Below, piece after piece: positions 2,735 to 20,908 of a stretch of DNA of 26,811 nt (the stretch's first letter is position 1; the number at the start of each line of letters is the position of its first letter). Below the pieces are notes generated by a model. That model did no database searches. It was not told where the DNA came from and saw nothing but the letters and a program-made list of their open reading frames with translations. Source of the stretch: a virus. Made by a program: the position numbers and the translations under genes. The stretch lies in UHGV virus genome UHGV-0179250; one strand, 5' to 3'.

Positions 2735-2797
2735 CTGGCCCTGGGTAAGGCAAAGGAGAACATGAGGAAGTATAAACTAATTCTGTTGAGGTTGACT

Positions 2798-2944
2798 ATG
2801 AAAAACGGCCTTGAATTGAAAGCGCCTGTAACTGATGACATCAGCAGAGCGGTGGCTTTTGCCATTAAGTGGGTGGCGGTCGGTATCACTGTGTCTCCGA
2901 TTCTGTATGGGATGGCAAAATTGATCATTGCTGTGAAATCGTAA
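2798..2944 (+). CDS. Small hypothetical protein with C-terminal transmembrane segment (alternative start at 2762)
   Basis: ORF with GAGG RBS 6 nt before the ATG at 2798; C-terminal hydrophobic helix; no motif recognised. Confidence 0.3.
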   Translation: MKNGLELKAPVTDDISRAVAFAIKWVAVGITVSPILYGMAKLIIAVKS

Positions 2945-2961
2945 GTGGGGCAGGGGTAAAT

Positions 2962-3096
2962 ATGTCAGATAGCATTATAAAACTGGCGCGAATTCTCTGT
3001 GTGGTTGTTGGCCTTTCATTTTCAGCAATGTTGGTTGCCATTTTCATTTCCACCGCCTGGCGAGTATTGAGCCTATCCGGATTGATTGGTGGATAG
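2962..3096 (+). CDS. Tiny hypothetical membrane protein (44 aa)
   Basis: In-frame ATG inside ORF 2869..3096 with a weak purine-rich RBS; single hydrophobic helix; could be non-coding. Confidence 0.25.
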   Translation: MSDSIIKLARILCVVVGLSFSAMLVAIFISTAWRVLSLSGLIGG

Positions 3097-3100
3097 TGAG

Positions 3101-3283
3101 ATGAAGCGAAAACACTGGACACACAGAATGCCGCGAACGGCGGCGAAATGGGCACTGGTAGCGATACTGGTGCCTTTTTTCCTGGTGGGATGCGTCAGCC
3201 TGGATAAGGCGCGCCAGCTTTTCGATACAGCTTCTCAGATCTGTGAAATTGTCGACGGTGTTCGGCAGTGTATGCAGAACTGA
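3101..3283 (+). CDS. Small putative lipoprotein (lipobox LVGC), possible lysis-accessory or o-spanin-like protein
   Basis: MKRKHW...AILVPFFLVGC signal peptide with lipobox cysteine; about 30-aa mature part with 3 Cys; follows the lysis genes. Confidence 0.4.
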   Translation: MKRKHWTHRMPRTAAKWALVAILVPFFLVGCVSLDKARQLFDTASQICEIVDGVRQCMQN

Positions 3284-3457: not shown

Positions 3458-3850
3458 ATGGAAAAGAAAGAAGACAAACCAATGGTAATTGGTGCTGTGG
3501 CTGTTCCGTTTAAGTTTGAACTGTCACAACTGGTGGAGATGCGCATCAGTGATGAATGGGGTGAGGTTAAAGCTCGCGCGCAGTATGCGGATGGCGAAAA
3601 CCAGTACTTGATCCACTACAAGGCTGCTGATGGTCGCGCCACAACGGCGTGGTTTGGTGAGTCAATGCTGGAAGCAACAGAAGATGATCGCCATCCGGGC
3701 TGTCCGGTATTTGCCGGTATGAAATTACCGGAAGGTGCAGTTGAACTGCAGCCGGGTGAGGTGTTCGTAATGTCAGAAGTCATTGATGGCAAACCGCAGT
3801 ATTCACGTATTGAAACTAACGGCAAGGACGTTTGTCTGGTTAGCAAGTAA
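3458..3850 (+). CDS. Hypothetical acidic protein, 130 aa (accessory/moron candidate)
   Basis: Strong RBS AGGAGAAGATA before the ATG at 3458; soluble, acidic; no recognisable motif; lies between the lysis and packaging modules. Confidence 0.5.
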   Translation: MEKKEDKPMVIGAVAVPFKFELSQLVEMRISDEWGEVKARAQYADGENQYLIHYKAADGRATTAWFGESMLEATEDDRHPGCPVFAGMKLPEGAVELQPGEVFVMSEVIDGKPQYSRIETNGKDVCLVSK

Positions 3851-3893: not shown

Positions 3894-4106
3894 TTAGTTA
3901 TCTTTTATGAATCCGTTAACGGCCCATCCGACAAGTCTGAGTATGCCGTATGTCAGTAAGGCACATACCAGGGAAACTAATACAGCAAATAACGAGATTC
4001 CTGTACCAGCACCTGTTAATAAAAAGAAACCAAAGCTCAACATCAACACCAAAATAGCCAACAGAACGCCTGTCCGGTGAAATCCTTTTGAAATAGTATT
4101 TTTCAT
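3894..4106 (-). CDS. Small two-helix membrane protein (70 aa) encoded antisense to the late operon; moron candidate
   Basis: Only minus-strand ORF in a gap between + strand genes; two hydrophobic helices; GGAGA RBS; own promoter-like element upstream. Confidence 0.5.
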   Translation of the reverse strand: MKNTISKGFHRTGVLLAILVLMLSFGFFLLTGAGTGISLFAVLVSLVCALLTYGILRLVGWAVNGFIKDN

Positions 4107-4138: not shown

Positions 4139-4167
4139 ATTTTACCATCAGGAAAGTGAAATTCTAT
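4139..4167 (-). promoter_or_regulatory. Candidate extended -10 promoter (TGgTAAAAT) for the minus-strand membrane-protein gene
   Basis: Minus-strand TGGTAAAAT at 4139-4147, about 30 nt upstream of the start codon; weak -35. Confidence 0.3.
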
Positions 4168-4516
4168 GCCATCACGGATCCCCCGCGCATGCCGTAAGCG
4201 AGGCTGTGCAGGCACAACGACAGACAGTTCTGGCTACTGCGATAAACATCGTGGTGAAGGCTGGGCACAGCACCAGCGCGGACTGAGCCGCCACCAGCGT
4301 GGCTATGGCTCAAAATGGACGCTGATTCGTGCCCGTATTCTGAAGCGTGATAAAGGTTTGTGCCAGTTGTGCCTTCTGGATGGCGTGGTCAGCGAGGCGA
4401 GAACCGTTGACCACATCATCCCGAAAGCTCGCGGTGGTACGGACGCAGACAGTAACCTGCAGAGCCTGTGCTGGCCCTGCCATAAAGCGAAAACAGCGCG
4501 CGAACGAATAAAGTGA
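4166..4516 (+). CDS. HNH endonuclease (terminase-associated, HK97 gp74-like)
   Basis: Cys-rich N-terminus plus DHIIPKARGG...N...LCWPCH HNH motif; position immediately upstream of the small terminase gene. Confidence 0.8.
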   Translation: MPSRIPRACRKRGCAGTTTDSSGYCDKHRGEGWAQHQRGLSRHQRGYGSKWTLIRARILKRDKGLCQLCLLDGVVSEARTVDHIIPKARGGTDADSNLQSLCWPCHKAKTARERIK

Positions 4517-4659
4517 TAATCATTCTCACTTGTGGGGGCGGGTCAAATCCCTGCAGCCCTGGCTGTCCGGGACCGCCCGCCAACCCTTCTTCGCATCGCC
4601 GCAGGTTCGAAAACTTTTTTTTGGGAATGCGATCAAACGATTGATAGGTAAAACCGATT

Positions 4660-5142
4660 ATGTCAGGACCCCCGAAAACCCCGCCACGCCTGCATTTGAT
4701 ACGAGGCAACCCCTCAAAGCGCCCCGTTAAAGACTCCAAAAAAACCGCTAAAAAGGACGAAAAAGGTCTCCCTAAAATTCCGCAGCATTTAGGGGCGCAG
4801 GGGAAGTACTGGTTCAGGCGAATGGCAGAGGAGCTGAATGCGGAAGGGATCATTTCTCAGCTTGATGCGCGTGCACTCGAGTTGCTGGTGGAAGCCTACA
4901 CCGAATACCGGCATCACTGCGAAATACTCGATGTTGAGGGTTATACCTACCGCACGGAAACGCAGAATGGCGATGTGATGATCAAGGCACATCCGGCTGC
5001 GGCGATGAAAGCGGATGCCTGGAAGCGGATCCGGGCGATGCTTGCAGAGTTTGGTATGTCACCGGCAAGCCGGGCGAAAGTAAATACCGCCGGACCGGAT
5101 GATGTTGATCCGCTGGCGGAACTTTTAAAAGCGAGAGACTGA
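4660..5142 (+). CDS. Terminase small subunit (P27 family)
   Basis: N-terminal ...LIRGNPSKRP... motif characteristic of the P27 family; stop overlaps the large terminase start. Confidence 0.8.
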   Translation: MSGPPKTPPRLHLIRGNPSKRPVKDSKKTAKKDEKGLPKIPQHLGAQGKYWFRRMAEELNAEGIISQLDARALELLVEAYTEYRHHCEILDVEGYTYRTETQNGDVMIKAHPAAAMKADAWKRIRAMLAEFGMSPASRAKVNTAGPDDVDPLAELLKARD

Positions 5143-19833: not shown

Positions 19834-20908
19834 CAGTCAGTTTTATCGCCCCGGCCTCCCGCAACTTATTTCTATGATCCGGAGCGATTTATTAACCCGC
19901 TTTGAGCAGGATACGCTGCTTCGTCGTATGGATGCGGAAGTGTATGCCCGTGTACAGGCTGCAGCCGTACACACGTTATACGGGTATATCGATTATCTTG
20001 CCAGAAATCTGTTGCCGGACATGTGTGATGAAGACTGGTTGTACCGGCACGCCAGAATCAAACGCTGCCCGCGAAAAGATGCGGTGGCAGCCCGGGGATT
20101 TGTGCGCTGGGATGGCGTAGAGGGGACGCCGGTATTGCCAGCGGGAACGCAGATCCAGCGTGATGATCAGGTGACCTTCACCACGACGGCGACGGTGACC
20201 GCAGCCGATGGTCTTCTCCGGGTGCCTGTTGTGGCAGACGAACCGGGATCGGCGGGGAATACGGATGATGGTATTGCCATGCAGCTGGGAACACCCGTCA
20301 GTGGTCTGCCGTCCACAGGGTACGCAGACACCATTACAGACGGTGAAGATATTGAAAATCTGGAAATATGGCGTGCCCGCGTTATGGAACGTTATTACTA
20401 CATTCCACAGGGGGGCGCAGACCCTGATTATGTTATCTGGGCGAAAGAAGTTCAGGGTATTAACCGTGCATGGACTTTCAGACACTGGAAAGGGATTGGA
20501 ACGGTTGGCGTGATGGTGGCGACAAACGATCCGGAACACCCGGCCCCGGATGAAAGCGTGATTAACGCAGTCAGGGACCACATCCTTCCTCTGGCACCTG
20601 TTGCCGGAAGCGGATTGTATGTATTCGGTGCCACAGAAAAAGTCATCCCGATGACGATTGCGTTATCGAAAGACACACCGCAGATCAGGACTGCAATAAA
20701 AGCAGAACTGAATGCGCTGATGTTCCGGGATGGTGTGCCGGAAGGGCGCATGTATCTGTCCAGAATCAGCGAGGCTATCAGTTTATCTGCAGGCGAGGTG
20801 GCCCATAGACTCATCGACCCTTCATCGGATATTGACCTGGGGGAAACTGAGCTTCCGGTACTCGGGGAGATCACATGGCAGGCTTATGATCCGGCAAGGA
20901 GTAAATAA
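19826..20908 (+). CDS. Baseplate J-like protein (Mu gp47-like)
   Basis: 360 aa; position and size typical. Confidence 0.8.
   Translation: MADSQFYRPGLPQLISMIRSDLLTRFEQDTLLRRMDAEVYARVQAAAVHTLYGYIDYLARNLLPDMCDEDWLYRHARIKRCPRKDAVAARGFVRWDGVEGTPVLPAGTQIQRDDQVTFTTTATVTAADGLLRVPVVADEPGSAGNTDDGIAMQLGTPVSGLPSTGYADTITDGEDIENLEIWRARVMERYYYIPQGGADPDYVIWAKEVQGINRAWTFRHWKGIGTVGVMVATNDPEHPAPDESVINAVRDHILPLAPVAGSGLYVFGATEKVIPMTIALSKDTPQIRTAIKAELNALMFRDGVPEGRMYLSRISEAISLSAGEVAHRLIDPSSDIDLGETELPVLGEITWQAYDPARSK

Follow-up and report, generated by a model that had tools for sequence, protein, structure and literature searches.

Colicin lysis or BRP proteins, such as ColE1 Kil and the BRP of pCloDF13, are lipoproteins with a mature part of about 28-33 amino acids (aa), no inner-membrane partner and a functionally important signal peptide; together with their stable signal peptides, these BRP/Kil proteins permeabilize the outer membrane (OM) via OmpLA and cause quasi-lysis. 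Among phages, the described effectors of OM lysis are two-component spanins, in which an inner-membrane subunit (i-spanin) is paired with a lipoprotein (o-spanin) such as Rz1 of lambda or PseT.2 of T4, unimolecular spanins (u-spanins) such as gp11 of T1, and disruptin (gp28 of phiKT), a cationic peptide that disrupts the OM without being a spanin and is the only characterized alternative to spanins. About 13 % of the phages of Gram-negative hosts have no recognizable spanin (PMC6139136), and Kongari et al. (2018; PMC6139136) noted 31 genomes with a lipoprotein but without an i-spanin and left other topologies open. Here we analyze a 26,811-nucleotide (nt) stretch of viral DNA, UHGV virus genome UHGV-0179250 (hereafter, the window), in which three small open reading frames, ORF1, ORF2 and ORF3, follow the endolysin gene. 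We lean toward the view that ORF3, a 60-aa prolipoprotein, is a lysis gene for the OM step that acts without a partner, and that ORF1 and ORF2 encode separable accessory membrane proteins.

ORF3 is a conserved lipoprotein gene

The window is recognizable as the late region of a phiP27-like/lambdoid enterobacterial prophage. The three ORFs are tightly packed on the + strand 3' of the endolysin gene, with gaps of 17 nt between ORF1 and ORF2 and of 4 nt between the ORF2 stop codon and the ORF3 ATG:

2762-2944, + strand: ORF1, 60 aa, small protein with a C-terminal hydrophobic helix (phrog_1115, E = 5.6e-40, residues 1-60)
2962-3096, + strand: ORF2, 44 aa, single-pass membrane peptide (phrog_4906, E = 1.6e-19)
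3101-3283, + strand: ORF3, 60-aa prolipoprotein (phrog_7528, E = 1.2e-37; dN/dS 0.19; alignment A1)
3101-3190, + strand: ORF3 signal peptide, codons 1-30, with a very basic n-region and the h-region ALVAILVPFF
3182-3193, + strand: ORF3 lipobox LVGC with Cys31, invariant in the family
3191-3280, + strand: ORF3 mature 30-aa peptide CVSLDKARQLFDTASQICEIVDGVRQCMQN, starting at the lipidated Cys

The PHROG families of all three are of unknown function, and in near-identical Escherichia coli prophages PGAP annotates each of them as a hypothetical protein. Searches of Pfam (up to E = 10), NCBIfam and PADLOC with ORF1-3 yielded nothing usable, and a profile search of the PDB returned only noise. The original prediction, made from the nucleotide sequence with its ORF translations, had proposed that these are small membrane or lipoprotein genes whose reading frames should be conserved, and this proved to be the case: the frames are kept in related prophages, with dN/dS values (Nei-Gojobori method, unique copies from about 90 related loci) of 0.44, 0.16 and 0.19 for ORF1, ORF2 and ORF3, respectively, versus about 0.6-2.0 in shifted frames. 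For comparison, the in-frame values are 0.23 for the holin gene and 0.07 for the endolysin gene. Together with the PHROG matches, this in-frame constraint confirms that ORF1, ORF2 and ORF3 are real genes. For ORF3 the whole-gene value compares with about 0.9-2.0 out of frame, and the part encoding the mature peptide has a dN/dS of 0.16; the possibility that the ORF3 region is only a non-coding terminator region was rejected on these values.

The topologies proposed in the original prediction were likewise recovered. The C-terminal helix is that of ORF1 (residues 30-48), the N-terminal helix is that of ORF2 (residues 11-29), and the lipoprotein signal with the LVGC lipobox is that of ORF3. The Cys-rich character ascribed to the mature peptide of ORF3 was overstated, although conserved Cys residues are indeed present: there are three, namely, the lipidated one and two others, C48 and C57 (positions +18 and +27 of the mature peptide), which alignment A1 shows to be conserved alongside the invariant VAILVP..L.GC motif of the signal peptide. 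The signal peptide is the best-conserved part of the protein. Its n-region contains six Lys or Arg residues and two His among 17 residues, and residues 2-9 (RKHWTHR) are kept even in those relatives in which Met10 is replaced by Thr, Ile or Val, so the first ATG (3101) is the true start codon.

Lipobox and sorting signals were judged by rule. The residue at position +2 of the mature peptide is Val, Ala, Thr, Gly, Ser or Glu in the family and never Asp, and because no member has Asp at this position, sorting to the OM (inner leaflet) is predicted. The mature peptide contains no Pro, has a net charge of -1 and is amphipathic, with a hydrophobic moment (muH) of 0.54 over 18 aa that was reached by 68 of 2000 shuffled sequences. 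AlphaFold2 (AF2) run on the ORF3 alignment produced a single long helix with a pLDDT of 68, a low-confidence model that is uninformative beyond helical propensity.

The ORF3 family is small and confined to Enterobacterales. It comprises about 140 clusters at 90 % identity. A hidden Markov model (HMM) search of 1.84 billion representative sequences found only 23 clusters at 50 % identity, with a mature part of about 28-32 aa in almost all of the 23, and revealed no longer or partnered relatives; a C-terminal hydrophobic segment or anchor was found in no family member. The gene is present in 314 of 5426 complete E. coli genomes (about 6 %). No Pfam match was obtained up to E = 10 for ORF3 or for its homolog from Lelliottia, and a divergent subfamily has the mature peptide CVSLEKARNWFGVAADVCDTVKKIKDRC. 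A scan of genome contigs detected only four loci, one of which (Bradyrhizobium) is a spurious match to the signal peptide. A record assigned to Actinobacillus phage vB_Apl-pPE4 (PP818812.1, 18263-20332) contains the holin and ORF3 region of an E. coli phiP27-type phage at 81-94 % identity, and its host attribution to Actinobacillus pleuropneumoniae looks odd.

ORF3 occupies the spanin slot

In the window, the genes that precede the three ORFs make up a holin-holin-endolysin cassette:

1397-1786, + strand: holin, Phage_holin_8, 129 aa, first gene of the lysis cassette (Pfam PF16931, E = 5.5e-22; phrog_198 'holin')
1776-2054, + strand: second holin-family gene, Phage_holin_3_7, 92 aa (Pfam PF05449, E = 8e-21; phrog_217 'holin')
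2056-2601, + strand: endolysin, GH108 and PG_binding_3 domains, 181 aa (Pfam PF05838 and PF09374; phrog_315 'endolysin')

We compared this arrangement across 103 loci with a match to the ORF3 family, comprising 80 IMG/VR loci together with loci from genomes, phages and metagenomes. Arrangements were counted in the 79 ORF3 loci with at least 1.2 kb of upstream sequence:

31 of 79 loci: M15 endolysin followed by ORF3, with nothing recognizable in between (gap often about 20 nt)
26 of 79 loci: GH108 endolysin, ORF1, ORF2, ORF3, the type found in the window
19 of 79 loci: M15 or GH108 endolysin, an ORF1-like gene, ORF3
2 of 79 loci: GH108 endolysin directly abutting ORF3
1 of 79 loci: GH108 endolysin, Ant, ORF3

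Thus, ORF3 occurs without ORF2 in 53 of the 79 loci and without both ORF1 and ORF2 in 34. It directly abuts the endolysin gene in Yersinia, Lelliottia, the E. coli W prophage and the divergent subfamily, in which it follows either Phage_holin_3_1 and Peptidase_M15_4 or Phage_holin_3_1 and GH108 genes with gaps of 3-10 nt. The coupling is tightest in Yersinia enterocolitica, where the holin8, holin3_7, GH108 and ORF3 genes all overlap, with an ATGA junction; a stop-start overlap of ORF3 with the upstream gene, endolysin or Ant, is also seen in Salmonella and in a Mu-like phage. The four-gene holin-holin-endolysin-ORF3 module recurs in the Mu-like phage (identified by Mor, GemA and the Mu portal) and in E. 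coli W, whose ORF3 (NC_017664.1, 1516984-1517166) terminates a holin-holin-M15-ORF3 cassette. Since the holins belong to three families and the endolysins to at least two types, the endolysin gene is the only constant neighbor of ORF3.

ORF3 and the Rz/Rz1 genes are mutually exclusive. None of the 103 loci contains a match to Rz/Rz1, and no + strand ORF of at least 70 aa with type-II membrane topology was found in them apart from internal starts within holin, terminase or toxin genes. A six-frame scan of the window identified ORF3 as its only lipobox ORF and produced no i-spanin-like type-II ORF; none was found in the lysis region of phiP27 either. The original prediction that none of the three ORFs is a typical i-spanin is thus borne out, no Rz or type-II coiled-coil candidate being present among the window ORFs. 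In the complete genome of phiP27, the ORF3 homolog is the only lipobox ORF of the lysis region, and the other lipobox ORFs adjoin the integrase gene. Furthermore, phage PhiR12_3, with the gene order S-R-ORF1-ORF2-Rz/Rz1, is similar to the window at the DNA level up to the start codon of Rz or ORF3, where the similarity stops, so that the two differ by a clean module swap at the spanin slot. On account of its position, its coupling to the cassette and its exclusivity with Rz/Rz1, ORF3 is the strongest candidate for the OM step of lysis in these phages.

The ORF3 homolog of phiP27 has in fact been catalogued before: Kongari et al. (2018; PMC6139136), in their supplementary tables, place phiP27 among the phages with a 'separated' two-component spanin. 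Their o-spanin (20706-20861; 51 aa, mature part 30 aa, 83 % predicted helix; PMC6139136) is the ORF3 homolog started at the second Met, and the i-spanin (20348-20542; PMC6139136) is a 64-aa product without a coiled coil. We find that the latter ORF (locus L003, 2670-2864) has a TTG start and no PHROG match, is present in only four loci and runs antisense to a 90-aa ORF with a match to phrog_36812 (E = 5e-20). It looks like an artefact of adjacency-based calling. We also considered phiP27 L22, a 409-aa protein with an N-terminal transmembrane domain encoded downstream of Q, as a distant i-spanin; it was rejected on its size and on the lack of a Yersinia counterpart between Q and the holin gene.

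ORF1 and ORF2 are optional inserts

Like ORF3, ORF2 is under purifying selection in frame, and its product consists of a strongly hydrophobic helix (Kyte-Doolittle (KD) value 2.8) and a C-terminal tail of 15 aa in which no coiled coil was found. Its homologs come from 276 phage records, mostly Stx1 and Stx2 phages, and from 414 IMG/VR stretches, with a genus range limited to Escherichia, Citrobacter and Cronobacter. The gene order R-(Ant or ORF1)-ORF2-Rz/Rz1 is found in all 76 Stx-type IMG/VR loci with downstream sequence. Rz starts within about 10 nt of ORF2 in 72 of these and is non-adjacent in 4, in the one inspected of which a methylase gene is inserted ahead of Rz. ORF2 therefore accompanies the spanin slot whatever its content and is not a dedicated i-spanin of ORF3; it is best described as an optional insert directly 5' of whichever gene fills the slot, Rz/Rz1 or ORF3. 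We accordingly rejected ORF2 as an i-spanin, on its co-occurrence with Rz/Rz1, its absence from many ORF3 loci and its 15-aa tail. In Stx-converting phages the ORF2 family is usually left unannotated (for example, at 3009-3140 of locus L005, and in Stx2a and Stx1a phages, BP-4795, YYZ-2008 and phage 86), and in some records the ORF2 frame continues into Rz as a 79-aa ORF.

ORF1 is under weaker constraint than ORF2 and ORF3 and is confined to Escherichia and Salmonella. It is found in 26 of the 79 ORF3 loci, 19 others having a version that is 45 % identical, and it also lies between R and Rz in PhiR12 phages. ORF1 is an optional insert between the endolysin gene and the spanin slot. Its length had been put at about 48 aa, as would result from initiation at the second ATG (2798). 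The ORF itself stands, but a 60-aa form starting at ATG 2762 is the most likely product, because an AAGGAG Shine-Dalgarno sequence lies 6 nt 5' of this ATG, the PHROG alignment spans residues 1-60, the N-terminal KYK..LRL motif is retained in the 45 %-identical relative, and PGAP calls the protein at 60 aa.

Given that ORF1 and ORF2 are found with Rz/Rz1 and are often absent beside ORF3, they are not obligate partners of ORF3. The suggestion, made in the original prediction, that the three ORFs could form one non-canonical spanin set thus holds in part: a spanin-like role is plausible for ORF3, but ORF1 and ORF2 do not belong to a single set with it.

Predicted terminators

Two hairpins with the features of intrinsic (rho-independent) terminators lie in this region:

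3150-3181, + strand: terminator-like hairpin GGGCACUGGUA-GCGA-UACUGGUGCCU followed by U6, within the ORF3 signal-peptide codons (terminator scan; minimum free energy of the 3140-3195 fold, -21.7 kcal/mol)
2695-2734, + strand: intrinsic-terminator hairpin between the endolysin gene and ORF1, with the stem CCCCGGCUG / CAG(U)CCGGGG followed by UUUUCUGUUU (RNA fold -24.1 kcal/mol, z = -2.25)

The embedded hairpin proper (3150-3175) has a stem of 10-11 bp, a GNRA loop and a run of six U at 3175-3180, and on these features is a predicted intrinsic terminator. In the Lelliottia homolog, which is 55 % identical at the aa level, the hairpin is identical in nucleotide sequence save for one loop base, and just 3' of it 9 of 10 conserved codons show synonymous changes. 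Synonymous diversity is 0.11 in the hairpin segment versus 0.19 elsewhere in ORF3. Covariation provides modest support: among 12 diverse sequences, 88 % of the cells pair and three pairs show double changes, a number that 19 of 500 shuffles also attained. In some members, for instance the Mu-like L103, the hairpin is degenerate or missing. It may represent a translation-dependent or Q-overridden terminator, an attenuator or the mark of a recombination joint.

The hairpin after the endolysin gene likewise has the hallmarks of an intrinsic terminator, with a G+C-rich stem-loop followed by a U-tract, and the A-tract upstream of it makes this predicted terminator potentially bidirectional. The core of this hairpin, CUGUUACCGCAG, is identical to the terminator of the P22 sar RNA, as seen in a sub-threshold Rfam alignment (23 bits vs the gathering score of 43). 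The Rfam search gave sub-threshold matches only (rimP leader and sar), which were driven by this hairpin. A promoter-like site is present on the minus strand (2798->2769; the region 2692-2798 was considered on both strands), and could give rise to an antisense RNA of about 65 nt over the ORF1 ribosome-binding site.

Points against a lysis role for ORF3 and alternative explanations

Several observations weigh against the view that ORF3 is a partner-less effector of the OM step. At about 4.5 nm as a helix, the 30-residue mature peptide would not be expected to span a periplasm of about 20 nm or more; because it is too short for the envelope and has no inner-membrane subunit, ORF3 is not a spanin in the strict sense. 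To our knowledge, there is no precedent for a partner-less phage lipoprotein that disrupts the OM. Comparison with Rz1 of the Stx/lambda type gave an hhalign probability of 3.8 %, confined to the signal peptide, and the weak matches of 8 of 26 family members to the 'Rz-like spanin' family phrog_1275 (E at least 0.004) appear to depend largely on the signal peptide as well. Nor did the Pfam search up to E = 10 detect any similarity to the colicin lysis proteins (Lysis_col, PF02402), and a disruptin-like cationic peptide was rejected on the net charge of -1. The conservation of the signal peptide may be due in part to the embedded RNA hairpin rather than to protein function. As for ORF1 and ORF2, the role assigned to them is read from their position, and the dN/dS of ORF1 is as high as 0.44. 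Literature searches found no experimental work on the ORF3 family. Finally, the interval between the lysis and terminase genes is a classic moron site, into which LT-II toxin genes, Ant, a methylase gene, ORF1 and ORF2 are inserted, and two LT-II prophages, L095 and L096/L098 (Rac-SA53 and SerU-LTIIb), have the holin-holin-endolysin trio with neither ORF3 nor Rz and carry LT-II genes in the slot; both are probably defective, given their deletions or fusions.

The last two observations are also in line with the main rival explanation for ORF3, namely, that it is a moron (perhaps together with ORF1 and ORF2), encoding an OM lipoprotein of the Cor/Llp/Bor type that would exclude superinfecting phages, mask receptors or confer serum resistance. 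Known factors of this kind, such as Llp of T5, Cor of phi80 and N15, and Bor of lambda, are typically small OM lipoproteins with conserved Cys residues; stx2e and a pertussis-like toxin gene are further cargo in the vicinity, and in the window a predicted terminator separates the endolysin gene from ORF1-3. However, our scan revealed no sigma-70-like promoter on the + strand upstream of ORF1 or ORF3, and in several lineages the ORF3 start is coupled to the stop codon of endolysin or Ant. Moreover, the lambdoid, P27-like and Mu-like phages in which ORF3 stays 3' of the endolysin gene differ in their tails, so that a receptor-specific role is unlikely, and ORF3 is strictly exclusive with Rz/Rz1. 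Superinfection exclusion, defense and toxic-peptide functions, all of which had been raised in the original prediction, gained no support from the PADLOC, NCBIfam and Pfam searches, and the Cor PHROG was matched by a single one of 26 members with E = 0.13. We therefore regard the moron explanation as unlikely.

Somewhat more doubtful still is the possibility that ORF1-3 regulate lysis timing at the inner membrane, as antiholins, holin accessories or endolysin-release factors, rather than acting on the OM. Small single-pass membrane proteins that act at the holin step are known, for example, Lcc6 of the Shewanella phage LambdaSo (65 aa), which is encoded far from the lysis cassette, and the Mu releasin. 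The optional presence of ORF1 and ORF2 is what would be expected of modulators, and, provided that it is stable, the ORF3 signal peptide, which is long, basic and conserved, could function in the inner membrane. Against this, the ORF3 lipobox without Asp at +2 predicts OM sorting, ORF3 is indifferent to the types of holin and endolysin it is found with, and ORF2 adjoins the spanin slot, not the holin gene; the phages with ORF3 would, furthermore, be left without an OM step.

It is highly improbable that ORF3 serves as the o-spanin of a minimal two-component spanin, with ORF2 as its partner in the window, the 64-aa ORF in phiP27 and the ORF1-like gene elsewhere: the phiP27 pairing of Kongari et al., the small size, N-terminal helix and close spacing of ORF2, and the two conserved periplasmic Cys residues, which at the level of sequence recall disulfide-linked spanins, speak for such a pair, but ORF2, with its short tail, is missing from most ORF3 loci and accompanies a complete Rz/Rz1 pair in every Stx-type locus, ORF3 directly abuts the endolysin gene in Yersinia, Lelliottia, E. 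coli W and the divergent subfamily, and the phiP27 'i-spanin' has the properties of a spurious ORF.

Neighboring genes

Downstream of the lysis cassette, the window encodes an HNH endonuclease followed by terS and terL. The HNH gene (4166-5142, + strand) is immediately 5' of terS/terL, an arrangement like that in phages with HNH-assisted cos cutting, and the cos site of phiP27 falls between genes homologous to the HNH and terminase genes. Between ORF3 and the HNH/terminase genes, a gene for a 130-aa soluble protein (3458-3850, + strand; phrog_1935, unknown function) is kept in many loci; the database protein P0236 corresponds to the N-terminus of ORF3 joined by a deletion to this phrog_1935 gene. 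A 70-aa ORF on the minus strand (3894-4106), with two hydrophobic segments, lies in a patch of low GC content (41 %), resembles a moron and matches no family; at the corresponding position, a few related loci (L008, L042, L079, L081 and L089) have copies with 54-67 % identity.

Upstream of the holin gene, there is a tRNA-Gly(UCC) gene (761-835, + strand) and a cluster of four or five terminator-like hairpins (1140-1371, + strand), which would fit the tR' region of a late operon under antitermination by Q. Toxin cargo is found near the cassette in related loci: pertussis-like S1 genes upstream of the holin gene, LT-IIa/b genes downstream of ORF3 or endolysin, and stx2e upstream in phiP27 (L094, 1489-2217; L104, 555-1295 and 3932-5075; L095, 4798-5938; L003, 1-1059).

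A model for ORF3 and comparison with known lysis systems

In the scenario that we favor, ORF3 would be made late, together with the holins and endolysin, and exported by the Sec pathway; after lipidation at Cys31 and processing by signal peptidase II, the Lol system would deliver it to the inner leaflet of the OM. Once the holins and endolysin have removed the peptidoglycan, the lipid-anchored, amphipathic 30-residue peptide with its Cys residues would destabilize the OM without an inner-membrane partner of phage origin. The OM could be broken either through activation of a host factor such as OmpLA or by disulfide-linked oligomers of the amphipathic helix; as a working model we adopt OM permeabilization of the BRP/Kil kind, for instance by OmpLA activation, with ORF3 as an analog rather than a homolog of these proteins. 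Expression of ORF3 may additionally be gated by the putative terminator in its own signal-peptide codons. ORF1 and ORF2 probably modulate lysis, by analogy with other small membrane proteins of lysis cassettes, this being the weakest part of the account.

ORF3 is thus probably an o-spanin-like lysis lipoprotein without a partner that has already been catalogued bioinformatically but was probably mis-paired. It fills the spanin slot in about 6 % of the complete E. coli genomes, including that of E. coli W, and its carriers include phiP27 (Stx2e), phiSTEC1575-Stx2k and an LT-II prophage, all without an inner-membrane partner for it. Should ORF3 indeed act on the OM, it would represent a new way of breaching this membrane, with consequences for the release of the Stx2e and LT-II toxins at lysis, which would be tied to an atypical lysis module; the catalogue entry for phiP27 would be corrected as well, its 'i-spanin' being apparently an antisense artefact. 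The analysis also draws attention to ORF2, a usually unannotated 44-aa membrane gene located directly 5' of Rz in hundreds of Stx phages.

ORF1 and ORF2 resemble Lcc6 and the Mu releasin in being tiny single-pass membrane proteins associated with lysis genes and belonging to no known family, but there is no sequence relationship between them and the Lcc6 gene is distant from the cassette. For ORF3, the closest parallels differ depending on the feature considered. With the o-spanins Rz1 of lambda and PseT.2 of T4, it shares the character of a small OM-type lipoprotein, the position at the end of the cassette after the endolysin gene and the conserved periplasmic Cys. Unlike an o-spanin, it comes without an i-spanin partner throughout the 103 loci, and its mature part of about 30 aa is predicted to be helical and is devoid of Pro; in Rz1, by contrast, 10 of 40 aa are Pro, and the PseT.2 precursor comprises 83 aa. 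The u-spanin gp11 of T1, like ORF3, is encoded by one gene that fills the spanin slot and begins with a lipoprotein signal, but it possesses a C-terminal transmembrane anchor and a long periplasmic domain, whereas ORF3 ends 30 residues from its lipidated Cys. Disruptin offers the example of a short amphipathic peptide, from a phage without spanins, whose proposed action on the OM does not involve bridging the periplasm; ORF3 differs in its lipoprotein signal and in the net negative charge of its mature part. As a functional analogy, the BRP/Kil proteins come closest, ORF3 being similarly short in its mature form and solitary, with the signal peptide as its best-conserved part, although it is encoded in a phage holin-endolysin cassette and not in a colicin operon. 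We tentatively propose, as a possibility that is less secure than the lysis role itself, that the ORF3 family (phrog_7528) constitutes a further class of OM lysis effectors, partner-less lipoproteins of about 30 residues acting from the inner leaflet of the OM, which would be distinct from two-component spanins, u-spanins and disruptin and common to P27-like, lambdoid and Mu-like enterobacterial prophages, including those that carry Stx2e, Stx2k and LT-II.

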